This document shows positions 337 through 24,000 of a DNA stretch of 24,000 nucleotides, one piece after another. The DNA is from Collibacillus ludicampi (GTDB lineage: Bacteria > Bacillota > Bacilli > Tumebacillales > BOQE01): NCBI RefSeq assembly GCF_023705585.1, contig NZ_BOQE01000001.1, forward strand, positions 857,341 to 881,340, read 5' to 3'. A model generated the notes under the pieces. That model ran no database searches. It was not told where the DNA came from and saw only the letters and a list, made by a program, of their open reading frames with translations. The position numbers were made by a program, and so were the translations under genes. Each line of letters starts with the position of its first letter. Within the stretch, counting starts at the first letter, position 1.

Positions 337-384
337 TGAATTTCCTCCCTTCCACCGACATACTTATCAAGAACTTTTTAGTTC

Positions 385-504: not shown

Positions 505-603
505 TATGAATTCCTCCTTCATCTTTTGAACTATTACATTTAATTCGTACATGAAGACTTTCGAAACGGATAAGTATCATTGGCCACTCGTCTATTTTTG
601 ATC

Positions 604-667
604 TTGAAAATGAGTGCTTGGGTGGATGTATCGCTTTGCGCTTGGGTTCGATGAAGGTCGTTCCGCC
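604..667 (-). repeat. Half copy (type-1 end plus one inner half-stem) of the palindromic element family
   Basis: TTGAAAATGAGTGCTTGGGTGGATGTATCGCTTTGCGCTTGGGTTCGATGAAGGTCGTTCCGC matches the left arm of 11000-11143 almost base for base. No partner arm follows. Confidence 0.8.
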
Positions 668-861
668 GCTAGAGGAATGTGTGGCACTGGCTATCTTCGA
701 TACAAGTAAGGAGATATGCAGGAGAATTGGGAAAATGGGAGAAAGAAGTTTCTAAAAAGGAACCGAATTTCCTCGTTTATCTTCAGAAGATTCGTTATGC
801 TTAAAATAAAGGAACACTAACAATTCGGACGTTGGGATGAATGGCAAAGAGGTGAACCGAT

Positions 862-2475
862 ATGAAAACTTCAGCTCCTCCTGTCACATACATAAGCTTG
901 CGAGCGAAAATCAACGGTCTCGTTTTATTAAATATCGTCTTGGTTTTAACTCTCGTCATGTCGGTTGTTTCTTACTTGATGATTCATACGCAATTTGAAG
1001 AAGTGGGTAAAGACGCACTCACACTTGCCAGGATCGTCGCAGATATGCCACAGATCCGACAGGCGTTTCATGAAAAAGATCCGACTTCCATCATTCAGCC
1101 CCTGGTGGAAGGTCTGCGCAAGAAAGCGGGAGCAGAATTTATCGTTGTTGGCAATATGAGTTTGATCCGCTATAGTCATCCCAATCCCGCACTCCTTGGC
1201 AAACCCATGGTAGGAGGAGATGACGACATCGTTTTGAATGGAAAGGAGAGTATTACAGAGGCAGTGGGTACCCTCGGCCTTTCCATTCGAGGCAAATCCC
1301 CAATTTTCGATGAGAACCACCGACAAGTCGGAATCGTCTCTGTCGGTTTCTTGGTAGATAACATTTGGAAGAAAGTGTTTTCCTTATGGTTAAAAATGCT
1401 CTTCGTCGGATTCGTCGGCTTAGTGATAGGGCTCATCGGCGCACATGTGTTATCCGGTCATATCAAACGCCAAATCTTGAATTTGGAACCTTTCGAAATC
1501 GCTTTCTTGGCACAGAAACAAGCAGCCATCCTCGAGTCGATCCGTGAAGGGGTTCTGGCAGTGGACAGTACCGGAAAAATTGCGGCTTGCAATCAGGAAG
1601 CCAAGCGATTGTTAAAGATTGATCATTTTGATATTTTGGGTAAATCTGTCGATGAAACGGTTCCACACCATCGTCTCGTACAAATCCTGAAAGAAGGTCC
1701 CGATCATCTCGATCTGCCTATGATCATCGGTAATTCGCTTGTGATCGTAAACCGGGTATCTGTCATGTTGAAGGATCGTGTAATCGGAGCGGTAGCCACG
1801 TTTCGCGACAAAATGAAATTGGAGCAAATCGAACAGCGCCTCGCCGATGTAAGTAAATACGCGGAAGCCTTGCGCAGTCAACGTCATGAATTCATGAACA
1901 AACTTCATACCATTTCCGGGCTCATTCAGATGGGGGAACACGAAATGGCTAGAGAATTGATCGCCCAAGTCCATCATGAACAACAGCAACTGCTGCAATT
2001 TTTTATGACTCGTATCCGTGATTCGGCAGTCGTAGGTATCCTCATCGGAAAAATGCATCGTGCAAAAGAATTGGGCATCGAACTGACGGTCGATCCCCGC
2101 TCCCACCTGAAGGAGCCTTGTCCGTATCGGGAGATTCTTGTCACCATTTTGGGAAATGCGATCGAAAATGCGTTGGAAGCGATGACCACTTGTGAAACCA
2201 AACTCCGAGAAAAAAGCATCATCGTATACATCAACGATCAGGATGAGCAGCTCGTCATCAGCGTCAAAGATTCCGGACCCGGAATTGATCCCGCGCTTGG
2301 AGAAAAGGTTTTTGAAGATGGCGTCACAACGAAAGGAGCCGGAAGAGGTTTCGGCTTGTCTCTCTTAGCCAAGTTGGTAGCCAATGTAGGAGGGAAACTG
2401 GCGATTCTGTCCTCGCCGGAAGGAGCCACTTTGGAAGCGCGACTGCCGTTACCTGGTGTACCAGAAAACGAGTAG
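862..2475 (+). CDS. Sensor histidine kinase, CitA/DcuS family (B. subtilis CitS/DctS/MalK-like)
   Basis: 537-aa ORF with SD AGAGGTGA about 6 nt upstream. Two TM segments flank an extracytoplasmic Cache/PAS-type domain. H-box RSQRHEFMNKLHTISGL, N-box GNAIENALEA, G-boxes DSGPGI and GRGFGLSL. Confidence 0.9.
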   Translation: MKTSAPPVTYISLRAKINGLVLLNIVLVLTLVMSVVSYLMIHTQFEEVGKDALTLARIVADMPQIRQAFHEKDPTSIIQPLVEGLRKKAGAEFIVVGNMSLIRYSHPNPALLGKPMVGGDDDIVLNGKESITEAVGTLGLSIRGKSPIFDENHRQVGIVSVGFLVDNIWKKVFSLWLKMLFVGFVGLVIGLIGAHVLSGHIKRQILNLEPFEIAFLAQKQAAILESIREGVLAVDSTGKIAACNQEAKRLLKIDHFDILGKSVDETVPHHRLVQILKEGPDHLDLPMIIGNSLVIVNRVSVMLKDRVIGAVATFRDKMKLEQIEQRLADVSKYAEALRSQRHEFMNKLHTISGLIQMGEHEMARELIAQVHHEQQQLLQFFMTRIRDSAVVGILIGKMHRAKELGIELTVDPRSHLKEPCPYREILVTILGNAIENALEAMTTCETKLREKSIIVYINDQDEQLVISVKDSGPGIDPALGEKVFEDGVTTKGAGRGFGLSLLAKLVANVGGKLAILSSPEGATLEARLPLPGVPENE

Positions 2476-2549
2476 TGCCGCCAGCGGCGCCATCAGAGGA
2501 TGAAAAGCTTCTTGTGCGGGAAGAAGTATAAGGCTATCTCAAGAAACGG

Positions 2550-2790
2550 AGTGGCTTTTGGGTGGGTTGTATCGCTTTGCGGCGCAGAGGTGAGTTGAAG
2601 GTCGTTCCGCTTCCTTTAAACCGTTTCAGAGGACATATTCTTTGCGCGTAATAGCGACCTTGAAGGTCGTCTCGCTACATTTGATTGATGTTCAATGCGA
2701 GACGGCCTTCACGGAGCATGAGCGCAAAGAATATGCCTCAAAGAACCCAAGCGCAAAGCGATACACCCACCCAAGCACTAGTTTTCAAAA
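2550..2790 (+). repeat. Long-form (241 bp) copy of the palindromic element family, between kinase and regulator genes
   Basis: Type-2 end AGTGGCTTTTGGGTGGGTTGTATCGCTTTGC (2550-2580). Central hairpin 2631-2737 (GAAGGTCGTCTCGC / GCGAGACGGCCTTC). Type-1 end GAACCCAAGCGCAAAGCGATACACCCACCCAAGCACTAGTTTTCAAAA (2743-2790). Confidence 0.85.
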
Positions 2791-2828
2791 TAGCACCAAT
2801 TATTAAGTCAATAAGGAGGGTATTCACA

Positions 2829-3530
2829 TTGACCAGCCGTCCAATCCGCGTCGCAGTAGTCGATGACGACTTTATGATCGCTAACCTGCACGCCAAATTC
2901 GTACATGCACAAAAAGGATACGAAGTGATCGGAACCGCATACAACTACGAACAGACATTGTCGCTCATCACCCGTTCCAAACCCGATCTGCTGATCCTCG
3001 ATGTGTATATGCCCGACCGTTCCGGAATCGATCTATTGCATACGTTGCGTACACAAAAAATCGCCTGTGACGTGATCCTCATCACGGCGGCAAAAGAGAA
3101 CGATATCGTAGAGGAAGGGTTTCGCCTAGGTATCTTCGACTATCTCATCAAACCCTTTGATTTCGATCAGCTCAAAAAATCGCTCCACAAATACGCGCAA
3201 TTCCGCTCGCGCTTAACAAGCGTAAGCCATCTCGATCAGGAGACGCTCGACGAACTGAAAAAACTGCGCGCCATCGAGGGTACCTCCACCAAATTACCGC
3301 CATCGGGAATCGATCTGAAAACATTGGAACGGATCAGAAAATGCCTGCAACAAGCGGAAGGTCCACAGAGTGCACAGACGATCGCAGAACGGGCCGGTGT
3401 CAGCCGCTCGACGGCAAGAACCTATCTCGTCTATCTCGTTGAGGAAAACATCGCGGAAGAAGAACTCCTATACGGCTCGGTCGGCCGTCCGCAACGGTTA
3501 TACCGTTTAAAAAATCAGCCCACGGCTTGA
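2829..3530 (+). CDS. Response regulator, CitB/DcuR family (CitT/DctR/MalR-like), receiver plus C-terminal HTH
   Basis: TTG 2829 is in frame with SD AAGGAGGG (2813-2820) 8 nt upstream, giving MTSRPIRVAVVDDD. Receiver motifs are VVDDD, LLILDVYMPDRSG and ITAAKE. HTH is QSAQTIAERAGVSRSTARTYLVYL. The ORF-track start at 2685 lies inside the repeat. Confidence 0.88.
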   Translation: MTSRPIRVAVVDDDFMIANLHAKFVHAQKGYEVIGTAYNYEQTLSLITRSKPDLLILDVYMPDRSGIDLLHTLRTQKIACDVILITAAKENDIVEEGFRLGIFDYLIKPFDFDQLKKSLHKYAQFRSRLTSVSHLDQETLDELKKLRAIEGTSTKLPPSGIDLKTLERIRKCLQQAEGPQSAQTIAERAGVSRSTARTYLVYLVEENIAEEELLYGSVGRPQRLYRLKNQPTA

Positions 3531-3542
3531 ACCTGTGGGCTG
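3509..3542. terminator. Hairpin between convergent regulator and ABC binding-protein genes
   Basis: CAGCCCAC (3516-3523) pairs with GTGGGCTG (3535-3542). The regulator stop codon lies in the loop. A T-run follows on the minus strand (ATTTTTT, complement of 3509-3515). Confidence 0.5.
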
Positions 3543-3563
3543 AACACGACATATTTGCAAAAA

Positions 3564-4628
3564 TTATTGATTCTTCGCTGCTTTCTCGACAAACTCGGTC
3601 GTATACGTTTCTTCCAGTTTGATGTTCGCATTTTTCAATTCCGGGTGAAAGGTTGAGAGAACCTCCAAGACTTTTTCCGGTCCCCCTTGCGGCATTTTGC
3701 CGTCTGCCGTGAACATCGCTACACTGTTTTTGAGTGCTTGTATATACATCGCTTTGTCTCCGGCGTAGTATTCATGCGGCAGTTGATCCGCGATTTCTTC
3801 CGGCGTATGGGTCTTGATATAGTGGAGGGTCTTTACAAACGCATTCGCCAAATGTTGTACGACTTCCGGATGTTCCTTCACAAAATCATTCCTCATATAT
3901 AAAGAGGATGCCGGATAGGTTCCGCCCAAAGCTTGTGTTGTCCCTTCCATCGTCGTCATATCGACAAACGTGGAGGCCAAATGTTTCGCCTTCAGCAGCG
4001 AAATCGTCGGTTCCGTGGTCACGGCCAGATCAATGCGACCCTGTTCCATTGCAGCGATTAATGTCTTTCCTGCTCCGACGGCGACGGGCGTATACTCTTT
4101 CGTGGAATGGCCGCCTTTCGTTACCAAATAATTAGCGAGGAAATTCGTCGAAGAACCGAGTCCGGTTACCCCGATCTTTTTCCCTTTCAGATCCGCCACG
4201 GTTTTAATCTGATCCTTCAATTTGTCGGAGACTACCAACTGCTCTCCGGGAACGGAAGCAAACTGGACAACCGATTCGATCTTTTTCCCTTTCGCCTGAA
4301 TATCGATCGTATGATCATAGAAACCGACGACTCCATCCACTTGCCCGGCGATCAATGCTTCTTCCGCCGTCTGACCGGCGGCTTCGTTCATCAATTCAAC
4401 ATCAATGCCTTCCTGTTTAAAATATCCGAGTCTTTGTGTCAACATAGCCGGCAAATAGATGATTTTCTCCAGCCCCCCTACCATGATCTTTACTTTCGGG
4501 ACGGAGGTTCCTCCTTTCGCAGACGTATCTTCCACCGTTTGTTTCGAACCGGCGCCGCACCCTGCCAAGAGCATTCCTGCCATAGCAATACTTGACGCAA
4601 GAATTCCAAGCTTTCTTCCTACTTTCAT
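3564..4628 (-). CDS. ABC transporter substrate-binding lipoprotein, NMT1/THI5-like (NitT/TauT family)
   Basis: 354 aa with SD AAGGGGGA 7 nt upstream. Signal peptide with lipobox LLAGCGAGS. Fold-level resemblance to SsuA/TauA/ThiY-type binding proteins. Confidence 0.85.
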   Translation of the reverse strand: MKVGRKLGILASSIAMAGMLLAGCGAGSKQTVEDTSAKGGTSVPKVKIMVGGLEKIIYLPAMLTQRLGYFKQEGIDVELMNEAAGQTAEEALIAGQVDGVVGFYDHTIDIQAKGKKIESVVQFASVPGEQLVVSDKLKDQIKTVADLKGKKIGVTGLGSSTNFLANYLVTKGGHSTKEYTPVAVGAGKTLIAAMEQGRIDLAVTTEPTISLLKAKHLASTFVDMTTMEGTTQALGGTYPASSLYMRNDFVKEHPEVVQHLANAFVKTLHYIKTHTPEEIADQLPHEYYAGDKAMYIQALKNSVAMFTADGKMPQGGPEKVLEVLSTFHPELKNANIKLEETYTTEFVEKAAKNQ

Positions 4629-4679
4629 TTACAGATCCCCCTTTTCCCATTTCGTTCCTATCGACACTTCACCTGATGG

Positions 4680-5546
4680 TTATTCTTGCCGCACGTGTCG
4701 CCAAGCGATAAAGCGCTTTTCCAGATTAGACACCAGCTTGTCGGCGATCAGTGCGGTAATCGACAACAGAACCATACCAGCGAAAACACCAGTCGTATCA
4801 AAAGCTCCCTGTGCCTGTGAGATCAAAAAACCAAGCCCCTCCGTAGCACCGATGAATTCTCCGACGACCGCCCCGACAAGCGCGAAACCGAAACTCGTGT
4901 GCAGGCTGGATAGGATCCATGTCAATGCAGAAGGGAGAATCACGTGCCGGGCCAATTGTCGTTTGTTTGCTCCCAGTAACCGCGCGTTATTGACCAGATT
5001 GCGATCAACCTCCCGCACTCCCTGAAAAGCGTTGAAAAAGACGATAAAAAACGTGAGCGTCACTCCCAACGCAATCTTCGAAGACATGCCGAGTCCCAGC
5101 CATAAAATAAAAATGGGTGCCAGTACGACGCGGGGCAAAGCATTGAACATTTGAATATAAGGCCCGAAGATCACCGATAAAATCTCACTCATCCCTAACG
5201 CATACCCGGTAATGACCACCAGCACGACCCCTAAAACAAACGAAATGATCGTTTCTTCGAATGTCACGAGAAAATGGATATAGAGAGGACCCTGGGTCGT
5301 ACCGTTGACAAACCAGTCGATCATGTGTTCCACGATCGCCGAAGGGCTGGAGAAAAAGAATGGATCGATGATCTTCCTGGAGGCTAAAAACTGCCATGAA
5401 CCAACCAGAATGATGAACACCGAGATTTGCAACGCCAAATTGCGCAACCGTCGTTTCAACGCTTTGGCCCTGAGCTCTTTTCTCCGATTCTCAACCTCCG
5501 CTTGCGATTGAGTACGCATGTTTCTAGGTACGGTTTGCGTTTGCAT
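4680..5546 (-). CDS. ABC transporter permease (NitT/TauT family, BPD_transp_1)
   Basis: 288 aa, multi-TM. The conserved cytoplasmic loop is of the ARLLGANKRQLARHVILPSAL type. Its start overlaps the upstream ATPase gene. Confidence 0.85.
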   Translation of the reverse strand: MQTQTVPRNMRTQSQAEVENRRKELRAKALKRRLRNLALQISVFIILVGSWQFLASRKIIDPFFFSSPSAIVEHMIDWFVNGTTQGPLYIHFLVTFEETIISFVLGVVLVVITGYALGMSEILSVIFGPYIQMFNALPRVVLAPIFILWLGLGMSSKIALGVTLTFFIVFFNAFQGVREVDRNLVNNARLLGANKRQLARHVILPSALTWILSSLHTSFGFALVGAVVGEFIGATEGLGFLISQAQGAFDTTGVFAGMVLLSITALIADKLVSNLEKRFIAWRHVRQE

Positions 5547-6378
5547 AACTGATCATCACCTCATCGCGCAAATCATTCCAGATTTGTTCATGCAGTTTCA
5601 TAAATTCCGGGTCGAAGCGGATTTCGGATACATTTCTCGGACGCGGTAGATGAATCGGGTAGTCCCCTTTGATCGTCGCCCCGGGGCCCGCCGTCAGAAC
5701 GATCACACGATCACTCAAAGCGATGGCCTCTTCCAGATCATGGGTGATGAAAACGACAGAGGAAGAAGTCTCTTCCCAGATCGTCAAGAGTTCATTTTCC
5801 ATTAACGCACGCGTATGCACATCCAATGCGGAAAACGATTCGTCCATCAGAAGAATCTCCGGCTGCACGATCAGACATTGCGCGAGCGCCACCCTCTTGC
5901 GCATCCCGCCCGACAGCTGGTGCGGATAATGGTTCTCAAATCCTTTCAAGCCTACTCGTTGAATCCATGTTCTCGCCTTTTCATACGCATCCCCCTTGTT
6001 TTCACCACGCAAACGAAGTCCTAAAGATACGTTATCGATCACCGTCTTCCAGGGAAACGCATTTTCCGTTTGAAACACACAAGCGGCGCGGGGGTTGATT
6101 CCTTGCAAGGGTTCCCCGTGAATCTGTACTTTCCCCTCCGATGGTGGTTCAAAACCTGCGATCAAATTGAGCGTCGTCGATTTTCCGCACCCGGTCGGTC
6201 CAACGATCGATACGAACTCCCCTTTCTCCACTTTTAGATGGATGTTGCTCAGTACGGTATGAATTTCGCCTGTCGGTTTTACAAACTCTTTCGTGACACC
6301 GATCAGTTCGATCACTGGTGTTTGAACCGTCCTTGCCGGTTCGTAGCGTACAAACTCCCGACTGCTGCTCATGGGCAT
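5524..6378 (-). CDS. ABC transporter ATP-binding protein (NitT/TauT family)
   Basis: Walker A GPTGCGKST, signature LSGGMRKR, Walker B LLMDESFSALD, H-loop FITHD. The start is placed at ATG 6378 or 6372, directly after AAGGGGGGG. The ORF-track start at 6525 adds 49 implausible residues. Confidence 0.88.
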   Translation of the reverse strand: MPMSSSREFVRYEPARTVQTPVIELIGVTKEFVKPTGEIHTVLSNIHLKVEKGEFVSIVGPTGCGKSTTLNLIAGFEPPSEGKVQIHGEPLQGINPRAACVFQTENAFPWKTVIDNVSLGLRLRGENKGDAYEKARTWIQRVGLKGFENHYPHQLSGGMRKRVALAQCLIVQPEILLMDESFSALDVHTRALMENELLTIWEETSSSVVFITHDLEEAIALSDRVIVLTAGPGATIKGDYPIHLPRPRNVSEIRFDPEFMKLHEQIWNDLRDEVMISYANANRT

Positions 6379-6525
6379 CCCCCCCTTACCGTTTTCGTAG
6401 AAATGAAAGCGTTTACGATTCAAAGTATATAGCGGAAGAAAGAGAGCGGGAAGAATTGTGTTGAATAATCGAAATAAAATAATAATTTTGTTTTTGGTGA
6501 TTTTGACAAGACATGATCCAAGCAT

Positions 6526-6553
6526 GAAAAAAGAGCCGGATCGAAATCCGACT
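6526..6553 (-). terminator. Rho-independent terminator of the dehydrogenase gene
   Basis: Minus strand reads GAGTCGGAT-TTCG-ATCCGGCTC followed by TTTTTT. One internal mismatch, UUCG tetraloop. Confidence 0.7.
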
Positions 6554-6595
6554 CACATGAGTGATTTTATAAAGACGTCGAGCTTGCAATCATTG

Positions 6596-7483
6596 TTAGA
6601 GCTGTCCGTCGAAAAGCTTGAACAACGCTTGCGTTCCGCTGTTCTCCTCTCCTTTTTCGGCCAGTATCTCATATAGCTCTTTCGCCAATTGAAGGCCAGG
6701 CAACTTCACATCCATTTCTTCTGCCGCTTCCAGTGCGATCTTCATATCTTTAATGAAATGTTTAACATAGAACCCCGGGGAAAAGTCTCCGCGAAGCATC
6801 CTCGGAGCAAGATTGCTGAGAGACCAGCTCCCTGCAGCGCCCGTCTGTATGCTTTGCAGTACCTTTTCCGGATCTAAGCCCGCTTTTTTGGCGTACGCAA
6901 TCGCTTCGCAAACACCAATCATGTTGGAAGCGATCGCGATCTGATTGCACATCTTGGTATGTTGCCCCGCACCGGGCCCTCCTTGAAGCACGATATTGTT
7001 GCCCAGAATCTCAAAAATAGGTTTGACAGCTTCGAACACTTCCGGGTCTCCGCCAACCATAATCGCGAGTCTCGCTTCCCGTGCCCCTACATCGCCTCCT
7101 GAAACCGGCGCATCCAACGCATAGATCCCCTTCGTTCGCGCCTCGTTGTAGATTCTTCGTGCCAACAAGGGGCTCGATGTCGTCATATCAATCACGTATG
7201 TACCAGGCTGAGCATGGGGAACAATCCCATTGGGGCCAAGATACACTTCTTCAACATCTCGCGGAAAACCGACCATTGTAACGATCACATTCGCTTGAGA
7301 AGCCAGTTCGGCGACACTTTCTTTCCAAACGGCCCCTTGCCGAATCAGTTCGTCTGCCTTTGATTTCGTCCGATTGTAAACGAGAACCGGGTAACCCGCT
7401 TTCAACAGATGACCAACCATACTTTTTCCCATGACACCCGTTCCGATAAACCCGATGATCGTGTTATCTTTCGTGAGTACCAC
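6596..7483 (-). CDS. NAD(P)-dependent beta-hydroxyacid dehydrogenase (3-hydroxyisobutyrate / tartronate-semialdehyde reductase family, YkwC/GarR-like)
   Basis: 295 aa with GTG start and SD GGGGGAG 5 nt upstream. Rossmann motif GFIGTGVMGKSM. Family motifs DAPVSGG and GAGQHTKMCNQ. Confidence 0.85.
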   Translation of the reverse strand: MVLTKDNTIIGFIGTGVMGKSMVGHLLKAGYPVLVYNRTKSKADELIRQGAVWKESVAELASQANVIVTMVGFPRDVEEVYLGPNGIVPHAQPGTYVIDMTTSSPLLARRIYNEARTKGIYALDAPVSGGDVGAREARLAIMVGGDPEVFEAVKPIFEILGNNIVLQGGPGAGQHTKMCNQIAIASNMIGVCEAIAYAKKAGLDPEKVLQSIQTGAAGSWSLSNLAPRMLRGDFSPGFYVKHFIKDMKIALEAAEEMDVKLPGLQLAKELYEILAEKGEENSGTQALFKLFDGQL

Positions 7484-7708
7484 GCGATCTCCCCCTTTTT
7501 CGATTTTTTCGACTCTTTTTCTATTATACTTGAGATTGATGGGGTATCAAAATTTGTCATTGTACGAAGAGTAGTCACATGAGTAGTCCAATCTGGAGAG
7601 AGGTTGAAGTTCAGAACAAAAGCCCAACTTTATTAGGGATAAGCGCCCTTTTAGGGGATACGAGCATAGTCTGAATCGTGATCGAAATTACAAAAGGGAG
7701 GATCTCTC

Positions 7709-7921
7709 ATGAGTAAACTTGATTCAGATCGCCAGTATGGTCAATATCACCCTTATCCCCACCCATTGCCATACCCTGGTCATCATTACCCATGGTTCCA
7801 CTATCCGCACCCATTCCCGCATCCCTACTTCCATCACTTTCCTTACCCGTTCCCTCATCATGGTTATTATCCTCACTATTGGCCAACTCATCCGGGAATG
7901 CATCCGTATAGTCAACGGTAA
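7709..7921 (+). CDS. 70-aa His/Pro/Tyr-rich low-complexity protein (candidate spore-coat or metal-binding protein)
   Basis: ATG 7709 has SD AAGGGAGGA 7 nt upstream, and a strong terminator lies downstream at 8019-8062. Counted by hand: 14 His, 17 Pro and 12 Tyr of 70 residues. Confidence 0.6.
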   Translation: MSKLDSDRQYGQYHPYPHPLPYPGHHYPWFHYPHPFPHPYFHHFPYPFPHHGYYPHYWPTHPGMHPYSQR

Positions 7922-8018
7922 TCAACATTGATGATATTCATCTTTATGAAAAACTCCTAAGTCTGCACAAGTGTGCCAGCGTCACTTTTTACATGTCTTT
8001 TATATAACTAAACCTAAA

Positions 8019-8062
8019 CGCCGATCCTCTTGGCCATTCAACCAGGATCGGCGAATCTTTTG
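8019..8062. terminator. Bidirectional terminator between the HPY-rich gene and the GNAT gene
   Basis: Perfect 10-bp stem CGCCGATCCT (8019-8028) / AGGATCGGCG (8044-8053). T-rich runs follow on both strands. Confidence 0.7.
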
Positions 8063-8094
8063 ATTTCGAATTGTATAGGGTGAGCCTCATAATG

Positions 8095-8531
8095 TTATTT
8101 AAATCTCTTCACAAATCGATATCCAGTAATTTCATACCCTAATTCTTTATAAAATGTAGGAGCCTGTTCTTCTCGTCCAAATCCACTCACAAGCCAAGTT
8201 ACGATACATCCCTGCTCAGCTGCTAAATTCTCTGCGAACTCCATGAGAAAGCGACCTACACCTTGACGACGGGCTGCTGAATCAACGACAATCACTGATA
8301 TTTCTCCATATTTACTCACTTCTTCTAAATTCTCACGGACACTAATCCCAATAGTCCCAAAATCGTATCATGATCTTCACAAACATATAGAAAATCGAAT
8401 GGGCTATCATCAATGAACTGTAAGCGATTCTCCATGTCCTCAAAGGATATCTCATGTCCCGTTAATTCATACATTAAATGACATAACGATGGAATATCAT
8501 CTTTTTTAACGGTACGGATGGTGAACGACAT
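8095..8531 (-). pseudogene. GNAT family N-acetyltransferase interrupted by a frameshift
   Basis: The N-terminal part (8325..8531, ...DTILGLLGLVSVRI*) and the C-terminal part (8095..8319 with motif A RRQGVGRFLM) are in different frames. The C-terminal frame is open back to 8367 (..GTIGISVRENLEEVSKYGEISVIVVD), so a 1-nt indel lies within 8325-8367. Confidence 0.75.
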
Positions 8532-8552
8532 ATGACTATCTCCTTCTATCTT

Positions 8553-9335
8553 TTACCGTAGCTCGCCTTTGACAACTGTCACCGCTTGCCCAGCCAATAA
8601 TACACGCCCTTCTTGAATCTGTACTTTCAAAATACCCTCTCGCACCGACAATTGTTTGGCCAGGAAATGGTTTTTTCCTAACTTTGACTGCCAGTAAGGT
8701 GCTAACGCGCAATGGGCCGATCCCGTAACGGGATCCTCATTCACCCCAACAGCCGGAAAAAAGCAGCGCGACACAAAATCAAACGGCTCTTCCTCCGCCC
8801 GACTGGTAACCAAAATTCCCCTTGCTTTTATGGTAGCTAGCTTCGTAAAATTCGGCTGAAGTTCTCGAATTTGACGCTCTGATTCCACTTCTACCAGTAC
8901 ATCCATGCGATTCGATCCGACAAACAGGAGTTCCACACCAAGGGCATCTTCTAACGGCTCAGGCACTTTACAAGGCTCCACTTTTTCAAGCGGAAAATTT
9001 AATTCAATCCAGTCCTCATCCATCTTCGCGGATAACCACCCGCTTTTCGTCAAAAACCGGAGTTCTTTTCCTTTCGGCTCGATCCCTGTCTCCCACAGAT
9101 AATGGGCACTCGCAAGGGTTGCATGTCCACACAGATCCACCTCTTTCACCGGCGTGAACCACCTCAATTCATACCCATCTTTTAACGGATACAGAAAAGC
9201 GGTCTCCGACAAGTTCATCTCCATGGCGACGTTCTGCATCCATTGATCACCTTTTCGTTCCTCCAACAGACACACGGCAGCCGGATTTCCTTTAAACGGT
9301 TCATTCGTGAAAGCATCAATGATGTATAGATTCAT
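8553..9335 (-). CDS. PhzF-family isomerase (YddE/YHI9-like)
   Basis: Start at ATG 9335 (MNLYIIDAFTNEPFKGNPAAV) with SD AAGGAGTGG 6 nt upstream. Conserved FFPAVGVNEDPVTGSAH. The ORF-track start at 9434 adds 33 residues with no SD. Confidence 0.85.
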   Translation of the reverse strand: MNLYIIDAFTNEPFKGNPAAVCLLEERKGDQWMQNVAMEMNLSETAFLYPLKDGYELRWFTPVKEVDLCGHATLASAHYLWETGIEPKGKELRFLTKSGWLSAKMDEDWIELNFPLEKVEPCKVPEPLEDALGVELLFVGSNRMDVLVEVESERQIRELQPNFTKLATIKARGILVTSRAEEEPFDFVSRCFFPAVGVNEDPVTGSAHCALAPYWQSKLGKNHFLAKQLSVREGILKVQIQEGRVLLAGQAVTVVKGELR

Positions 9336-9577
9336 ATGGATCCACTCCTTTGGTATGGATTGATCGCGGGTTCTTTGTATCCAAAATCGCATTCCAGTCC
9401 ATGGGTAGATAATTTTAGATTGGTTACTAATCATGAAAGATTTCTTAACGAGTGTTTGGGAACCTGAGAAAACGATTAACCAGAAAATTCCTAACTCTTA
9501 TTGTACCATCATATACCAAAACAGAAAAGATACTATACAAGAAATATAGTAATTTTAAAAATAATTGAGGAATTGTC

Positions 9578-9706
9578 ATGTCGCGTATTTGTATCATGTC
9601 AAACGTCTTTATTTCATTGGTATATGATGGTATTCTATTAGACAGGAAGTTTTTGGTGGAATACATGGAGATTAAAAAATGGAAGGGAGGTAGAATAGTT
9701 AAATGA
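9578..9706 (+). CDS. 42-aa micro-ORF (MSRICIMSNVFISLVYDGILLDRKFLVEYMEIKKWKGGRIVK)
   Basis: SD TGAGGA 7 nt upstream of ATG 9578. The stop overlaps the next ATG in an ATGA junction (9703-9706). No homologue recognised. Confidence 0.35.
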   Translation: MSRICIMSNVFISLVYDGILLDRKFLVEYMEIKKWKGGRIVK

Positions 9707-10032: not shown

Positions 10033-11002
10033 ATGAAAACACTCGAACGAATCAGTCAATTTGTCGGTGGAACCTTTGCAGTTTGGGTACTGCTTTTTGC
10101 AACTCTTGGTTTTTTCTTACCGAACACATTTATAACATTTAAATCCTACATCTCCCCGCTCTTAGGAATTGTAATGTTTGGAATGGGTCTTACTTTATCC
10201 GGTAGTGACTTTAAAGAGGTATTTAAGCGGCCCAAAGACGTGGCTATTGGCGTTATCGGTCATTATATTATTATGCCGCTTGTGGCTTATCTCCTTGCCA
10301 TTGGGCTTCATCTTCCGCCTGAAATCGCCATCGGCGTGATTCTGGTTGGAAGTTGCCCGAGTGGTACGGCATCCAATGTTATGACCTTTCTCGCCAAGGG
10401 GGATGTGGCGCTTGCCGTCTCAATCGCGACCGTTTCCACTCTGCTCGCACCTTTTGTAACGCCGTTTTTAATCTCCGTTTTGGCAGGTAAATGGACACCT
10501 GTCGATCCACTGGCTTTATTTAAAGACATCATTGAAATCGTCATTTTACCGATCGCGTTGGGGATCATTGTCAAAGCGTTCTTTAAAAAGCAAGCCCAGG
10601 CGAGTGTCAAAATGCTTCCGCTTGTCTCTACCTTGGCCATTGTTTTGATCATTTCTGCGGTTGTAGCCGGAAGTCACGACCGAATCTTGAAAACAGGTTT
10701 TTTAAATTTTTGCCGTTGTCATACTACATAACGTTTTAGGCTTTTTGTTAGGCTATTTCTTCACGAAACTGTTTGGTATGGAGCTACCCAAAAGAAAAGC
10801 GGTCGCATTTGAAGTCGGCATGCAAAATTCCGGGCTTGGGGTCGCACTCGCAACCGCCCACTTTCATCCTTTAACAGCCGTTCCAAGCGCTATCTTTAGC
10901 GTTTGGCACAATCTATCGGGATCGATTCTCGCAACGTTTTTTGCCAAAATGGAAGAAAACCGAGAAACAGGTATAGAAACGAGAAATAACCTGACCAAAT
11001 GA
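10033..11002 (+). pseudogene. Bile acid:sodium symporter (BASS, YocS-like) with a +1 frameshift in a homopolymer tract
   Basis: ORFs 10033..10731 and 10745..11002 together cover one BASS protein (GSCPSGTASNV ... [10 protein letters not shown]). Dropping one A of AAA 10704-10706 restores ..[22 protein letters not shown].. Confidence 0.8.
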
Positions 11003-11143
11003 CAAACTAGTGCTTGGGTGGGTGTATCGCTTTGCGCTTGGGTTCGATGAAGGTCGTCCCGCCTGGATTCTTAACAGTGGTTGCGGAACGACCTTCAACT
11101 CACCTCTGCGCTGCAAAGCGATACAACCCACCCAAAAGACACT
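11000..11143 (-). repeat. Minimal (144 bp) copy of the palindromic element family
   Basis: Terminal inverted repeats AGTGCTTGGGTGGGTGTATCGCTTTGC and GCAAAGCGATACAACCCACCCAAAAGACACT. Inner helix GAAGGTCGTCCCGC (11049-11062) / GCGGAACGACCTTC (11083-11096) around a 20-nt loop. Confidence 0.85.
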
Positions 11144-11250
11144 CGGTTGCATTAGGCAGCTTAATTCTCTCTTCCCGTACAAGAAACTTTTCATCCTCTG
11201 ATTTCGCTGATTGCGGCATGGGAGACTATTTTGAAATCGACGGAATGGGT

Positions 11251-11275
11251 GCCCTGCTGATTCAAGCAGCAGGGC
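11251..11275 (-). terminator. Terminator-like hairpin downstream of the SPFH gene
   Basis: GCCCTGCTG / CAGCAGGGC 9-bp stem lying 26 nt after the stop. The T-tract on the minus strand is weak. Confidence 0.45.
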
Positions 11276-12361: not shown

Positions 12362-12775
12362 TTATCTTCCGCGGTGTTTCGCTTTTGCTTTTTGGATTTT
12401 AATCTCGCGTTTTTTTTCTTTCAGCAATTCGCGCTGCATTTTTGAAAAGGTTTTTCTTTCTTTTTTCGCACTCTCGAACTGTAATCGGATAGCTTCTTGT
12501 GCTTTGGTTGAAATCCCCTTTTGTTTCAGCGTTTTAGCCACTTCCCTTTGAAGCCGCTTTGGGTTCAGTTTCTTCTCGCGTTTTTGCACGATCTCGATGC
12601 CATCATGACGGCTTTGTGCCATAAGGGGCAGCAACCGGTACTTGACGAAGTGGAAAACTTCCGGGTCACTTGGTTCCGTACCAAAAACATACCGGTACAC
12701 GCTCAACTTGGATTTCATCACTTGTTCGATGACTCCAACCCAAAATTGACCATCATGATATACGGTCAATTTCAC
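12362..12775 (-). CDS. yjdF: YjdF-family protein (DUF2992)
   Basis: GTG 12775 has SD GAGGAGGG 6 nt upstream, giving MKLTVYHDGQFWVGVIE..., plus a Lys/Arg-rich tail (..KIQKAKAKHRGR), as I recall for B. subtilis YjdF. The ORF-track start at 12871 adds 32 leader-encoded residues. Confidence 0.75.
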   Translation of the reverse strand: MKLTVYHDGQFWVGVIEQVMKSKLSVYRYVFGTEPSDPEVFHFVKYRLLPLMAQSRHDGIEIVQKREKKLNPKRLQREVAKTLKQKGISTKAQEAIRLQFESAKKERKTFSKMQRELLKEKKREIKIQKAKAKHRGR

Positions 12776-12900
12776 GTTGATCCCTCCTCTGAAAACACTC
12801 TGTGGAATGATGGACATCCCGAGGAGGGGAAGGTTACTGACATCGTGGTAACGATGCGCCCGGACTACCAACCGGACCGTGTTTTTTCATTCCATAATTG
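12776..12900 (-). promoter_or_regulatory. Structured 5' leader with an SD-sequestering helix (candidate yjdF-type riboswitch or other cis-regulator)
   Basis: CCCTCCTC (12821-12828, minus strand) is perfectly complementary to the SD GAGGAGGG (12782-12789). Further small helices lie upstream (for example 12841-12856). Confidence 0.45.
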
Positions 12901-17126: not shown

Positions 17127-17795
17127 TCATTTTGTTTTTCCTTTCATATCCTGTTTTCCATGGCGGCGTTCCAATTCGGCGAGAACTTCATCGAACGGAA
17201 GTCCTTGTTGGCGCAACAGAACGAGCAAATGATACATCAAGTCGCCCGCTTCGCATGTCAATTCATGCGCATCATGATTCTTCGCGGCGACGATCACTTC
17301 CGTGGACTCTTCCCCGACTTTCTTAAGGATCTTATCCAATCCCTTCTCAAACAGATAGGTGGTATATGCGCCTTCCGGCCGTTCCGCGTCGCGACGGGCG
17401 ATCGTCTGAATGAGTTCATCCAAGATGGCGAAACGGTCACCTTCCTGTACATTCCGTTCACCACCTGCAGCCGGTGTAAAGAAACAGGAGTATTTTCCGG
17501 TATGGCAGGCAGCCCCCGTTTGTCTGACTTCCACGAGTAGAGTATCTTTGTCGCAATCATAGGAGATGCGCACCACTTTCTGAATATGACCGGAAGTCGC
17601 CCCTTTGTTCCAATACTCCTGACGTGAGCGGCTCCAAAACCAGGTCGTTCCCGTCTCGATCGTCTTGATCAACGACTCCCTATTCATGTACGCCAGCATC
17701 AGGACTTCTTTGCTCTGCACATCTTGCACAATCGCCGGTATCAACCCGGTCTCTTTATCAAACTGAAGCGTATCGATCCAAGCGTATTCACTCAT
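17127..17795 (-). CDS. hisI: Bifunctional phosphoribosyl-AMP cyclohydrolase / phosphoribosyl-ATP pyrophosphatase
   Basis: 222 aa. The N-terminal HisI part has [11 protein letters not shown] and [11 protein letters not shown]. The C-terminal HisE part has [20 protein letters not shown] overlap with hisF. Confidence 0.92.
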
Positions 17796-18553: not shown

Positions 18554-18658
18554 CTCATGCACCGCCTCAGCTATTCTAAAACTTTGTGGTTCGTAAGCGT
18601 ATCCATTCTAAGGCAATTTGTACTCATAGGATAGCATCTGCCTATGCGGCAAGGGTGG

Positions 18659-20019: not shown

Positions 20020-20615
20020 CACAAAACCCCCTTCGTGGAAAGAACACCACGGATCTTCTCGTCCCGCGCCACCGCTTCCGCAAGCGCACCGCCGAACGCT
20101 TTGAAAATCGCTTCAATCATATGATGGGTATTCGTGCCGTAATGGAGATTCACGTGGAGTGTCACACCGGCATTGCTAGTGAACGCGCGGAAAAACTCCT
20201 CCACAAGTTCCGTCGGGAACGTGCCGACCCTTTCACTGGGGAATTCCGCGTGGAAGACGAGAAACGAACGTCCAGAAATATCGATCGTTACTTGCGCCAA
20301 CGATTCGTCCATCGGTGTGAAGCGATTGCCGTAACGGCGAATCCCTTTTTTATCGCCGATGGCTTGTCGGAACGCCTGCCCCAGGCAAATGCCGATATCT
20401 TCGACCGTGTGATGATCATCGATTTCCACATCGCCTTTCGCGTCAAGCGTTAAGTCAAAGCCGCCATGTTTCGCGAACAAATCCAACATGTGCGCCAAAA
20501 AGGGGACAGGGAGCGAAAGATCCCGTTTCCCTTCTCCGTCCAGATTGAGTGTCAAAGAAATTTGCGTTTCTGTCGTTTCGCGCCGGATCGTTCCTATACG
20601 TCCATCCACGCTCAT
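20019..20615 (-). CDS. hisB: Imidazoleglycerol-phosphate dehydratase
   Basis: Motifs [20 protein letters not shown] and [14 protein letters not shown]. Monofunctional length (198 aa). Confidence 0.92.
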
Positions 20616-21895
20616 TCACCCTTTCCCTCTTTTTCAAGCCGGATGCGGATCGCATTCGCGTGTGCTTCAAGCCCTTCCACCTGAGCCATCTCGATAATTT
20701 TCCGGCCGTTTTTCATGAGTGCTTCTTTGCTGTAACGAATCAGCGACTGTTTCTTGAGGAAATCATCTACGTTGAGCGGGGAGGAAAAACGTGCGGTGCC
20801 TTCTGTCGGCAACACGTGATTGGTTCCGCAGAAATAGTCGCCGACCGGTTCGCTCGAATAGGCTCCCACGAAAATCGCCCCCGCATTTTCGATTTGGGAG
20901 ATGTATTCTTCCGCATCGCGAACCAAGAGTTCCAGATGCTCCGGCGCCACACGGTTAGCGATGGCAACCGCCTCTTGCAGATCTTTCGTCACGACGATTG
21001 CCCCCATGTTGCGGATCGCTGCTTCCGCAATGGCACGACGCGGCAATTTCGCTACTTGGTGAACGATCTGCGCAGCCACCTGTTCGGCCAATGTCCGTGA
21101 AGGGGTCAGCAAAATCGCTTGAGACAGTTCTCCATGTTCCGCCTGTGAGAGCAAATCGGCCGCAACATATTCCGGATCTGCGGAATCGTCCGCAATCACA
21201 AGGATATCGGACGGTCCAGCCATGCTTTCGATTCCCACTTTTCCGAACACCGCTTGCTTGGCTAATGCGACATAGATGTTTCCGGGACCTACGATCTTGT
21301 CGACAGCACGTATCGTTTCCGTACCGTAAGCGAGCGCGGCGATCGCTTGCGCGCCTCCGATACGGTAGACCTCCTTCACACCGAGCTCGTGGATGGCCAC
21401 CAGCACCCCGGGGCTGATATTCCCTTCACGATCCGGTGGGGTGACGAGCACAATTTCTTTCACACCTGCGACCTGTGCGGGAATCACGTTCATCAAAACG
21501 GATGACGGATACGCTGCTGTCCCGCCCGGTACATACACTCCAACCCGTTTCAGCGGGCGAATCAACTGTCCCAATAACACCCCATCCGCCATCGGCGTTA
21601 AAGTGGACGGCCGTAATTGTCCTTCATGATACTTGCGGATATTGCGAATCGCATCACGCAAGGCTTCCAAAAACAGCGGGCTGACTTGTTGGTAGGCAGC
21701 TTCATACTGTTCGAAAGGGACGCGAAAATCATGTAGATCGATTCCGTCAAAACGACGGGTGAAAGCACGTACGGCTTCATCCCCGTGCTGCCGGACCTGT
21801 TTGATCATGTCGATGACGATTTCCCGCTCTTTTGCATGCAAATCCTGTTCTTCCCGTTTCAGCGTGAACTCATCCGACTGTACGATGCGTATCAT
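20612..21895 (-). CDS. hisD: Histidinol dehydrogenase
   Basis: 427 aa with motifs [25 protein letters not shown] and DLLSQAEHG. 4-nt overlaps on both sides. Confidence 0.92.
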
Positions 21896-22527
21896 AGGAC
21901 ATCCCCCTTCACTACTTGGCGCAGACGTGTAATCATGTCGTCAATCAAGGCGCTTTTCAAGCGGAAACTCATGCGGTTGGCGACGACACGCGTGCTGATC
22001 TGGATGATTTCTTCATGGATCACGAGACCGTTTTCTTTCAAGGTTCGCCCCGTTTCAACAAGGTCGACGATCCGTTCGGCCAGTCCGATGAGAGGAGCCA
22101 ATTCCACCGACCCGTTCAAAAATATCACTTCCACTTGCCGACCCTTGTTGCGAAAATGGTTGGTTGCGATTCTCGGATATTTCGAGGCAACGCGTGTCAC
22201 CGCGCTTTCTTTTTCTTCAGGGAGTCCGCATACGCACATGCGGCATTTGCCGATTCCCAGATCAAGCAATTCGTATAGGTCGCGCCCGGCTTCAAGCAAG
22301 ACGTCTTTCCCCACGATGCCGATATCCGCTGCCCCATACTCCACATACGTCGGTACATCGACGGGCTTGGCAAGGATGAACTTCATCTTCATATCGGGGG
22401 ATTGCAAGATCAGTTTGCGCGATTCATCGATATCTTCAGGCACGGAGATTCCCGCATCGCGCATCAAGGATAATGTATCTTTGAGGATGCGCCCTTTTGA
22501 GAGGGCGATCGTGAGTTGTTCGCTCAT
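21892..22527 (-). CDS. hisG: ATP phosphoribosyltransferase, short (HisZ-dependent) form
   Basis: MSEQLTIALSKGRI from ATG 22527, with SD AGGAGTG (22534-22540) 6 nt upstream. The ORF-track GTG 22536 lies inside the SD. About 211 aa with no C-terminal regulatory domain, consistent with the presence of hisZ. Confidence 0.9.
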   Translation of the reverse strand: MSEQLTIALSKGRILKDTLSLMRDAGISVPEDIDESRKLILQSPDMKMKFILAKPVDVPTYVEYGAADIGIVGKDVLLEAGRDLYELLDLGIGKCRMCVCGLPEEKESAVTRVASKYPRIATNHFRNKGRQVEVIFLNGSVELAPLIGLAERIVDLVETGRTLKENGLVIHEEIIQISTRVVANRMSFRLKSALIDDMITRLRQVVKGDVL

Positions 22528-22554
22528 ATCAGTCACTCCTACAGGCCGCTACTT

Positions 22555-22793
22555 TTGAAAGTTTAGTGCTTGGGTGGATGTATCGCTTTGCGCTTGGGTT
22601 CGATTATCGGGCATATGCTTTACGTTCATGCTCCGTGGAGGTCGTCTCGCTTGGAATATATTTAATTGTTGCGAGACGACCTCCAAAGTCGCTGTTTCAC
22701 GCCAAGCATATGCCCCTCACCAGCCAAAAAGGAAGCGAGACGACCTCCAAAGTCGCTTTCTTACGCAAAGCATTACGCCCACCCAAAGACACT
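22555..22793 (-). repeat. Long-form (239 bp) copy of the palindromic element family, between hisZ and hisG
   Basis: Type-1 end TTGAAAGTTTAGTGCTTGGGTGGATGTATCGCTTTGCGCTTGGGTTC. Central hairpin 22609-22715 (GGAGGTCGTCTCGC / GCGAGACGACCTCC). The 45-nt right arm is duplicated (22671-22715 and 22735-22780). Type-2 end is CGCCCACCCAAAGACACT. Confidence 0.85.
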
Positions 22794-22837
22794 ATTCACT
22801 CTTCTGATGGCCCCTCTAAAAGCATGGGTGGCAACAC

Positions 22838-22858
22838 TGAAAGTTAGTGCTTGAGCAG
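22838..22858 (-). repeat. Solo type-1 terminus fragment of the same element family
   Basis: TGAAAGTTAGTGCTTGAGCAG closely repeats TGAAAGTTTAGTGCTTGGGTGG at 22557-22578. Confidence 0.55.
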
Positions 22859-22880
22859 TTACGTTGGAAAAATTCCCACA

Positions 22881-24000
22881 TCAGTGTACTTGCTGCTCCA
22901 AGAAGGCATCATAATGAATACGTACCGCTTCATCTTCTGTTTCCAAACGGCCATTTTCCAGTCGGCAGATGATGGCTCCGTCGCCTTGTTCATTCTCCGG
23001 CAAGTCAAGAATCCGTTGGGTTGTTACCGTATAGCCTTGTCTGCGCAGATAGGCGGCGAAACCTAACGAGATATGGCGATCCCGAGGGAGATAGTATAAA
23101 AGATGCCTTGCTGCTCCCTTTTGATTTCCTTTTCTTTCTAATACTTCCAATACGCGTTCGATCCCGATCATAAACCCTGTCGCCGGGAGAGAACGACCGA
23201 ATTTTTCCAACAAGTCATCATATCTCCCTCCCCCACAGAGAGGAAAGCCAATTTGCGGTGCGTAACCTTCGAAGATCGCACCTGTATAATAGTTGAGACC
23301 AAGAACCAGGCCAAGGTCGATCTGTACCCACTGTTCGACACCGTAGAGCACAAGGATCTCCCATATTTCTTCCAGATTACCGAGAGCTTGAAGCGCCGTC
23401 TCATGCGTGGTGAGCGCGCGGGCCCGTTGCAGGACATCCAATCCCCCGCGCAACTGCGGGATGTGAAGAAGGACTTCGCGTGCGCGCGTATCGTCCACTT
23501 GTGCCACTAGATGCTCAAAACCTACATAGTTTTTGTCCGCGAGCACGAAACGCATGCGGTCGGCAAGTTCGTGATCCGCGACGTGTTCCGCGAGGATACC
23601 ATTCACGAAGCCGACTTGCCCCAAGGCCAACCGAAAGTCTTGCACACCGAGCGAGCGGAGCGTTGTGACTGCCAGTGCAATCATTTCCGCATCCGCGTCG
23701 GGTGAACCGTCTCCGATCAACTCGACGCCCGCTTGCGTAAACTCAGCATCCCGACCTGCAACAAATTCTTGTTGACGGAAAATATTAGCATTATATGACA
23801 AGCGTAAAGGCAAAGGTTCATCGCGCAATAGGGAGGCAACTACCCGAGCGATCGGGGTCGTCATGTCCGGCCGCAAGACAACCGTCTTGCCAGAGCGCTC
23901 AATAAACTTAAACACACGGTCCTCTTCCCCGCGCAAACCGTTTTGAAAGGTTTCCATATATTCAAACGTAGGAGTGATCACTTCTTGATATCCCCAGCTC
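22881..24000 (-). CDS. hisZ: ATP phosphoribosyltransferase regulatory subunit (HisRS paralogue), 5'-truncated by the window edge
   Basis: The frame stays open to position 24000 (..SWGYQEVITPTFEYMETF..), so the ORF-track start at 23981 is an internal GTG. Class-II aaRS-like motif LRPDMTTPIARV. Confidence 0.88.
   Translation of the reverse strand, partial: SWGYQEVITPTFEYMETFQNGLRGEEDRVFKFIERSGKTVVLRPDMTTPIARVVASLLRDEPLPLRLSYNANIFRQQEFVAGRDAEFTQAGVELIGDGSPDADAEMIALAVTTLRSLGVQDFRLALGQVGFVNGILAEHVADHELADRMRFVLADKNYVGFEHLVAQVDDTRAREVLLHIPQLRGGLDVLQRARALTTHETALQALGNLEEIWEILVLYGVEQWVQIDLGLVLGLNYYTGAIFEGYAPQIGFPLCGGGRYDDLLEKFGRSLPATGFMIGIERVLEVLERKGNQKGAARHLLYYLPRDRHISLGFAAYLRRQGYTVTTQRILDLPENEQGDGAIICRLENGRLETEDEAVRIHYDAFLEQQVH

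Follow-up and report, generated by a model that had tools for sequence, protein, structure and literature searches.

Repetitive extragenic palindromic (REP) elements and bacterial interspersed mosaic elements (BIMEs) of enterobacteria are mosaics of palindromic and linker motifs that are often found in the intergenic gaps of operons or directly behind a stop codon. According to a passage of one review, some of these elements act as attenuators or as mRNA stabilizers (PMC3049150). The BOX elements of Streptococcus pneumoniae, which are modular (boxA-boxB(n)-boxC) and resemble miniature inverted-repeat transposable elements (MITEs), vary in the number of their internal modules, giving short and long forms of 67-637 bp (PMC3049150). 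For the enterobacterial repetitive intergenic consensus (ERIC) elements of Yersinia and other enterobacteria, also termed intergenic repeat units (IRUs), orientation has been reported to be crucial for the effect on the stability of upstream mRNA (PMC2229807). Some of the Correia/NEMIS (Neisseria miniature insertion sequence) elements of Neisseria, or of the bcr1 elements of the Bacillus cereus group, fuse to the ends of genes and so alter C-termini (PMC3184786). Here we describe a repeat that separates hisZ from hisG in a 24-kb window of the soil bacterium Collibacillus ludicampi, the window being the whole stretch of DNA analysed, to which all coordinates refer unless another record is named. 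In our view, the spacer is probably a tolerated, co-transcribed insertion of a non-coding, multi-copy, mosaic repeat of concentric hairpins that resembles MITE, BIME and BOX elements.

The his operon lies on the minus strand of the window. A Pfam search identified hisZ, which encodes the regulatory subunit of ATP phosphoribosyltransferase, at 22881-23981 (tRNA-synt_His, E = 6.6e-69), with its 5' end beyond the window edge, and hisG, which encodes the short-form ATP phosphoribosyltransferase of 211 amino acids, at 21892-22527 (HisG, E = 4.7e-53). The HisG protein is 100% identical to a C. ludicampi protein (P0001), and a permease of the window points to the same species (P0241). The HisZ orthologue of a close relative (P0121, 408 amino acids) is 97% identical to that of the window. 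The hisZ stop codon (22881-22883) and the hisG ATG (22527) are separated by 353 nt, which agrees with the ~350 nt noted in the initial annotation, where the operon was described as otherwise tight. This description is accurate for the G/D, D/B, B/H, H/A and F/IE junctions, for which overlaps of 1-4 nt were given and the open reading frame (ORF) table yields 4 nt each, but it leaves unmentioned the junction of hisA and hisF, which is also loose (~96 nt).

The two genes are separated by 5 nt in L006 (HisG identity of 89%, or 81% for the DNA) and in L001 (HisG identity of 80%), and they overlap by 4 nt in Effusibacillus lacus (L003; HisG identity of 79%) and in L013. As the junction is tight in all four relatives, a comparison that the initial annotation had called for, the whole of 22539-22892 (354 nt, minus strand) is an insertion into an ancestrally tight hisZ-hisG junction. 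It is larger than the 239 bp plus 21 nt of foreign DNA originally proposed, and it includes a 42-nt module, termed ext below. The L006 junction reads GAACAG followed by GAGTGACCGACATG, with the hisG Shine-Dalgarno (SD) sequence falling within the end of hisZ. In the window the two halves of the same junction are GAGCAG at 22893-22898 and GAGTGACTGATATG from 22538, so that the flanks GAGCAG and GAGTGAC correspond to the uninterrupted GAACAG-GAGTGAC of L006.

With the boundary drawn in this way, hisZ takes its final codons and its stop (CAA GTA CAC TGA, 22881-22892, minus strand) from the inserted DNA. The HisZ C-terminus reads ...YDAFLEQQVH in the window and in the close relative compared with ...YEAYQEQE in L006, and by that boundary the insert has rewritten the hisZ ending, with ...EQQVH replacing ...EQE. 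The point of entry was within the final two or three hisZ codons, immediately 5' of an ancestral AGGAGTGA in which the former stop of hisZ and the ribosome-binding site of hisG were combined; the inserted DNA, under the same choice of boundary, gives hisZ an in-frame stop three codons in, while the hisG ribosome-binding site (AGGAGTGA...ATG) and start were left intact. The retained ribosome-binding region (AGGAGTGACTGAT ahead of the ATG, 22528-22540, minus strand) contains the old hisZ stop context GAGTGA and has counterparts in L006 (AGGAGTGACCGACATG) and L001 (AGGAGTGACAGATGTG). The only certain effect of the insertion is the replacement of the tight junction by a 353-nt, strongly folded spacer.

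Two further records from the Joint Genome Institute (JGI) were used to follow the insertion and its relatives. The first, REL, is a 145-kb contig reached via the hisZ orthologue, from which four overlapping pieces, L008, L010, L011 and L012, were taken (record positions 93083-137513). The window aligns collinearly with REL along its whole length, at 96-99% identity (97.8% overall for L008), and the hisZ-hisG spacer of REL is 362 nt long. The second, L009, is 85-95% identical across window positions 213-9050 (~92%).

Read in the direction of his transcription (all features on the minus strand), the insertion continues beyond the hisZ stop with 27 nt (22854-22880) that are present in L008 and have no counterpart in the tight-junction relatives. 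A solo type-1-like end fragment, CAAGCACTAACTTTCAGTG, follows at 22835-22853 as a direct repeat of the right terminus; this is the solo type-1 end that had been placed at 22838-22858. The short form of the ext module (22793-22834, 42 nt, TTGCCACCCATGC...GCCATCAGAAGAGTGAATA) abuts the left arm and aligns with the ext modules at 2476-2548 and 11145-11218 and at 8199-8230 of L009. The left arm (22735-22792, GTGTCTTTGGGTGGGCGTAATGCTTTGCG...GGAGGTCGTCTCGC) is of subtype B, as is the left arm at site 1 of L009, and it leads into a T-rich linker, TTCCTTTTTGGCTGGTGA (22717-22734), which together with the preceding GGAGGTCGTCTCGCTTCC gives the his sense strand a weak terminator-like site. The inner hairpin layer, delimited from folds, is of subtype C (22609-22716) and consists of a 46-nt left half, a 20-nt AT-rich loop and a 42-nt right half. 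The right arm (22552-22608), with the canonical type-1 end GAACCCAAGCGCAAAGCGATACATCCACCCAAGCACTAAACTTTCAAAAG, is of subtype A and is 97.6% identical to the family right arm. The insertion ends in a 13-nt tail, TAGCGGCCTGTAG (22539-22551), which is identical in L008.

The initial annotation recognized in this spacer the same family and the same long form as a plus-strand copy at 2550-2790, collinear with it module by module, and our alignments agree: all of the modules it listed are present, and minus-strand 22555-22800 matches plus-strand 2549-2795 (76% identity in 227 aligned nt, E = 1.7e-42; 189/234 identical positions in a global alignment). The collinear alignment scores 246.5 compared with 90.5 for the reverse complement and 10.4 +/- 10.5 for shuffled sequences, so that, palindromic as the element is, its polarity can be meaningfully assigned. 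The fold of the complete his spacer has an energy of -143.9 kcal/mol on the sense strand (z = -8.3) and of -130.7 kcal/mol on the antisense strand (z = -6.75).

The window holds four copies of the family, in the his spacer, in the spacer between a sensor kinase and a response regulator gene, as a short form at 11004-11144 and as a half copy at 604-667; copies are 141-365 nt long and more are found in the relatives. The unit is a long imperfect hairpin, each half of which is patterned as 10-12 nt, a GCTTTGCG-like stretch, ~10 nt and TTGRAGGTCGTYYCGC. Three subtypes were distinguished: A, with outer arms ...GGGTGGGTTGTATCGCTTTGCG and CGCAAAGCGATACAYCCACCC...; B, with ...GGTGGGCGTAATGCTTTGCG and CGCAAAGCATACGCCCGCC...; and C, with GGGCATATGC... 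and ...GCATATGCCC. Short forms are a single A hairpin, and long forms have one or two C hairpins nested in the loop of an A or B hairpin. The resulting concentric folds have energies of -80 kcal/mol for one layer, -116 to -137 kcal/mol for two and -181 kcal/mol for three. Most full copies carry the ext module ahead of the left arm (rough consensus CCACCCATGCCGCAATCRGCGCCATCAGAGGATGAAAAG), and in A-type copies this module is longer; in L009, two sites that bear arms in other genomes have a solo ext module. As ext lies outside the left arm, the true left terminus of the element is uncertain. The module map is consistent across the window and the two relatives.

The sister long form (2476-2795, plus strand) consists of ext, an A-type left arm, one C layer and a truncated A-type right arm. 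The short form (11004-11251, minus strand), between convergent SBF transporter and Band-7 genes, has A arms only (11004-11144), followed in coordinate order by its ext (11145-11218) and by a degenerate type-1-like fragment (11226-11251) that precedes ext in the reading direction of the element and is comparable to the solo fragment of the his copy. The half copy (604-667, minus strand) is a right A arm alone, at a site where L009 has a full nested long form. We also considered ext as a transduced flank of the kinase-regulator spacer; the similarity of the L009 spacer to it is marginal (p = 0.007-0.04 by shuffling), and this spacer, which has no arms, is better read as holding only a degenerate solo ext.

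The repeat shares with MITEs its small size (below ~500 bp), its lack of coding capacity, its copy number of four in 24 kb, the polymorphic presence and absence at orthologous sites described below, and outer arms that are imperfectly complementary over ~60 nt in the manner of terminal inverted repeats (for example, 11004-11062 with 11083-11144). The gene calls for ~59 kb of related contigs include no transposase. The resemblance to BOX lies in the non-coding, multi-copy character with complementary outer modules, in short and long forms set by the number of internal modules, in extensive predicted RNA structure and in a location in transcribed intergenic regions, including those inside operons. 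The sequences, however, are unrelated; the internal modules of BOX are in tandem, whereas here they are concentric hairpin layers with a left and a right half, and BOX has defined target-site duplications and a proposed partner insertion sequence, whereas no consistent duplication was seen here in two empty/filled pairs.

REP and BIME elements, compared here together with the REPIN-RAYT systems and their associated RAYT (IS200/IS605-like) gene, are likewise mosaics of a few palindromic motifs and linkers (here the A, B and C arms, ext and the linkers) in extragenic yet transcribed positions, in operons or just past stop codons; the positions of the present family include the interior of two operons and a site 1 nt past a stop codon. 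REP units differ in being G+C-rich stretches of 20-40 nt set side by side in alternating tandem arrays, compared with hairpins of ~105-140 nt nested in one another here, and their hosts are enterobacteria whereas the present host is a Firmicute (Alicyclobacillaceae). ERIC elements are similar in being imperfect palindromes (~127 bp) with terminal inverted repeats that are co-transcribed with flanking genes, but they are unrelated in sequence, form a single-layer hairpin and have a TA target duplication. Their effect was measured experimentally, while the his element is known from its sequence alone. The Correia/NEMIS and bcr1 elements are also small, intergenic and transcribed, have terminal inverted repeats and vary in presence between strains; their sequences are again unrelated, Correia elements carry integration host factor sites, promoters and ribonuclease III sites, and concentric layering and a 5' ext module are found in neither group. 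By sequence, then, the element belongs to none of BOX, REP/BIME, ERIC, Correia or bcr1, and the concentric layering and ext are its own features.

Searches beyond these genomes gave no further family members. An exact 24-base terminal-repeat pattern had no match in the genome_contigs, metagenome_contigs and viral_contigs collections, and a degenerate 25-mer, meant to include the variant of the P0003 relative discussed below, had a single match in a Patescibacteria metagenome-assembled genome (about the chance expectation) and none in metagenomes. The metagenome result is weak evidence of absence, as JGI contig Ga0618274_000033 (L011/L012) has perfect matches to the pattern and is not in the collection. 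Nothing was found with the inner-hairpin pattern in viral contigs or by blastn against plasmids. The family is thus recorded only in C. ludicampi and its closest uncultured relatives, and appears to be new and restricted to this lineage.

A consensus scan found no sigma-70-type promoter-like site in any of the three spacers, nor on either strand of 22400-23000. The his sense strand has one weak terminator-like site (22748-22731), with a stem of six pairs, three of them G-C, followed by TTTTTGG. Because there is no promoter-like site and only a weak terminator-like one, and seven essential genes lie downstream, the his transcript most likely runs on through the spacer, to judge by these signals. 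The alternative, in which the element splits the operon by terminating hisZ transcripts at the hairpin and T-run past the left arm and supplies or uncovers a promoter for hisG through hisIE, seems to us very unlikely. It would account for the terminator-like site and for the fixed short distance from the type-1 end to the next ribosome-binding site that the initial annotation proposed; yet the six-pair stem is in competition with far stronger nested pairing, shuffled sequence averages 0.7 such sites, the copy at 2549-2795 has none, and the promoter that it calls for is not seen in the regions scanned.

That the spacer encodes a small protein or a free-standing small RNA is hardly credible. Several ORFs of 21-93 amino acids do lie within the element on both strands, and one of 21 amino acids, starting at TGATG, overlaps the hisZ stop; its ATG, however, is missing in L008 (TGAATAG), and the frames are broken by indels between copies, so that comparison of the copies in the window and the relatives leaves no conserved ORF in the element. 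A free-standing RNA is disfavoured by the lack of both a promoter-like site and an Rfam match. With Rfam 15 at the gathering threshold, the only match in the window is a yjdF riboswitch elsewhere, and relaxed searches of all three full copies returned chance-level microRNA hairpin matches only (E > 0.1). A hidden riboswitch or leader for hisG was rejected on the same absence of an Rfam match, and relay ORFs that would restore translational coupling were rejected, none being conserved.

We define a copy as forward if its left, type-2 arm is transcribed before its right, type-1 arm. Both intra-operon copies are forward, as the initial annotation had observed, and the half copy at 604-667 indeed has the same polarity relative to the micro-protein genes on the minus strand. 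The type-1 ends, given there as 15-22 nt upstream of the next SD sequence, do lie just upstream of it, ~11-13 nt away at hisG and ~20 nt away at the response regulator gene. The orientation bias from which that annotation inferred function or tolerance at the RNA level is not supported. Across ~80 kb of sequence, the transcribed copies are three forward (his, the kinase-regulator spacer and site 3 of REL) to one reverse (11004-11144), which is not significant, and the probability that two copies agree by chance is 0.5. The forward copy at site 3 of REL is in a 3' untranslated region, after the gene and ahead of a terminator hairpin. The reverse copy begins 1 nt past the SBF transporter stop and is almost certainly transcribed with that gene; a hairpin at 11252-11275 has the better T-rich tail on the plus strand, as read from the sequence, and would then follow the element on the SBF transcript. 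As the half copy sits between divergent genes (the plus-strand kinase and two tandem minus-strand micro-protein genes), it is uninformative for this count. That the two operon copies agree in polarity is best put down to chance, or to a filter that decides which insertions persist, and is not evidence of a built-in RNA function.

An RNA-level role would mean that the element acts in one orientation: once transcribed within an operon, its long hairpins would be a processing site or a barrier to decay that sets a new ratio of upstream to downstream mRNA and, at his, replaces the translational coupling of hisZ and hisG; effects of this type have been reported for ERIC and REP/BIME. As orientation-dependent effects are documented in reviews for ERIC and BOX (PMC2229807, PMC3049150), the idea has precedent. 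The forward polarity of both operon copies and of the 3' untranslated copy specific to the relative is in keeping with it, as are the greater stability of the forward strand in every copy, the strong sense-strand fold of the his spacer (z = -8.3) and the compensatory changes that keep the hairpins paired. We nevertheless consider such a role unlikely. The three-to-one ratio lacks significance and the SBF copy is transcribed in reverse; the comparison of G-U with A-C pairs in the stems (G-U 39 forward against 30 reverse across eight related copies) gives a weak asymmetry among copies that are not independent; and a DNA palindrome predicts the pairing equally well. Moreover, an arm swap has cost the his copy 20 kcal/mol relative to its orthologue, and the content of orthologous sites differs between close genomes. 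Nothing found here shows a regulatory role.

Comparison of the window with REL and L009 indicates that the family changes rapidly. At site 1, upstream of the kinase, the window and REL have the half copy and L009 has the full nested B/C long form with ext. Site 2, the kinase-regulator spacer, is 353 nt in the window, 467 nt in REL, which has an extra complete C layer (both halves), and 78 nt in L009. Site 3 (window 6554-6578) is empty in the window and has a solo ext in L009 (2525-2594), whereas REL has 800 extra nt (L011 11348-12149) holding a gene for a 171-amino-acid tRNA_edit (YbaK-like) protein, a short-form A repeat and a B-arm fragment; the tRNA_edit gene and the repeat were gained or lost together. 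Site 4, the SBF/Band-7 gap, has the short form with ext in both the window and REL, and the L009 contig does not reach it. Site 5, the hisZ-hisG junction, is filled in the window and REL and empty in more distant relatives. Four of these five sites thus differ among the genomes compared (the window, REL at ~98%, L009 at ~92% or relatives still more distant). No additional copy was found in the ~23 kb of REL and L009 sequence outside the span of the window.

The his copies themselves have diverged more than their surroundings, the window and REL sharing 93% identity in the spacer and 97.8% in its flanks. In the left part the two spacers are almost the same, and the differences are concentrated in the right arm and the inner hairpin: the right arm is A-type in the window and B-type in REL, and the inner hairpin of REL is 91.7% identical to the hairpin at window 2631-2737 compared with ~87%, counted by eye, to its own orthologue. 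Compensatory double changes are found in five of 38 pairs among five C hairpins, two of them distinguishing the orthologous his copies, and the two halves of a hairpin change jointly. The clustering and the compensatory pairs therefore indicate that blocks have been overwritten from other family members since the genomes diverged. Whole hairpin layers are gained and lost in this fast turnover, and arms and inner hairpins are swapped between copies, probably by gene conversion or re-insertion. After this partial overwriting the his copy of the window folds less well than its REL orthologue (-116.5 compared with -136.6 kcal/mol), which argues against a strong constraint on it.

A bolder reading of the concentric structure is that a mobile element inserts into the hairpin loops of its own or related copies and so builds concentric palindromes, that copy-correction at the DNA level matches the halves, and that survival in operons is limited to one polarity, only the RNA of that strand fitting downstream expression. 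We regard this as quite improbable. If it were true, a second occurrence at hisZ/hisG in a relative of 75% DNA identity would point to a sequence-specific target, which might resemble the GGAGTG common to the left terminus and the ancestral junction. That relative is known by its HisG (P0003; 75% hisG DNA identity), and three independent Logan short-read assemblies of it break ~110 nt upstream of hisG. The sequence there (L004 1-111, L005 1-109) contains two tandem right-arm-like stretches, GGAGCTCGTGTGCAAAACGATACC and GGAGCCCGAGTGCAAAACGGTATTCC, which align marginally with C and B right arms in the order seen in REL (p ~0.03). This relative may carry an insertion at the same junction, either ancient and precisely lost in the L006 lineage or independent. 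A candidate for the hisZ side of this junction, P0129, was rejected because it comes from another sample; its junction is tight.

Returning to the reading we prefer, a tolerated and co-transcribed insertion, several observations weigh against it. The forward strand is more stable than the reverse by 3-12 kcal/mol in all eight copies tested. This margin appears to come largely from side hairpins of the unpartnered left-arm segment, and the copies share ancestry, but the stronger forward folds and the forward polarity of three of the four transcribed copies are compatible with some strand-specific constraint. Read-through transcription is deduced solely from consensus scans, and the insertion would on our interpretation be neutral and simply tolerated; it has, however, been kept in two genomes, with a possibly homologous one at this junction in a far more distant relative, and this retention could mean that it is useful there. 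Mobility by transposition is putative: neither of the two empty/filled pairs compared, hisZ/hisG (L006 with the window) and the kinase-regulator spacer (L009 with the window), yielded a clean target-site duplication, and only short CAG/TAG or AAGTA-like repeats, with no consistent duplication, were seen there.

If this ordinary interpretation holds, the locus is a well documented case, from a little-studied Firmicute family, of a palindromic repeat that landed in the last codons of a gene, rewrote its C-terminus and broke a conserved coupled junction of an essential biosynthetic operon with no sign of operon loss. The layers and arms of the family differ between genomes that are 98% identical, with the halves changing jointly, and this offers a natural system for the building, correction and tolerance of long bacterial palindromes. 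It is also a warning for annotation and assembly, as these elements are read through by gene callers and interrupt contigs built from short reads.

Further along the his operon, the Pfam search named hisD (20612-21895) and hisIE (17127-17795), both on the minus strand, and hisB, hisH, hisA and hisF were named from the ORF table together with Pfam labels on collinear genes of relatives. The hisA-hisF spacer (18563-18658, minus strand) is ~96 nt here and 104 nt in REL; in other relatives the two genes lie between overlapping by 1 nt and being 45 nt apart. It opens directly past the hisA stop with CCACCCTTGCCGCA (18645-18658), which matches the start of the ext module. This stretch may be what is left of a second, decayed family member in the operon, on weak evidence from a pattern derived post hoc.

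Several other features of the window were noted. The tandem paralogous micro-protein genes at 208-336 and 385-552 (minus strand) encode hydrophobic products, MDGCFGIFTRWAVVFLIIFVLFF... and MDGIFGGFTRWAVVFLIIFVLFI..., which we take to resemble the YjcZ-type small sporulation proteins; in the close relative, the JGI call merges this region and the half copy into a 315-amino-acid ORF that has no Pfam match and looks spurious. The SBF transporter gene (10033-11002, at ~10704) and an acetyltransferase gene (8095-8531, at ~8345) have single-base frameshifts compared with the 98% relative, one an extra A in TTTTTTAAATTTTT and the other a 1-nt deletion, and are either recent pseudogenes or errors in the source assembly. 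An azaaromatic (yjdF) riboswitch (Rfam RF01764, 90.7 bits) lies at 12794-12898 on the minus strand, directly upstream of a DUF2992-family gene (12362-12871), and the JGI gene call of the relative (208 amino acids) runs through it. Finally, the stretch 9451-9659, near which the L009 contig ends, contains a 52-nt imperfect inverted repeat (9479-9530 and 9606-9657) that is unrelated in sequence to the his repeat family; it is ~80% identical to the relative compared with 96-98% elsewhere, and hydrophobic ORFs of 53 and 70 amino acids are called there in the relative.

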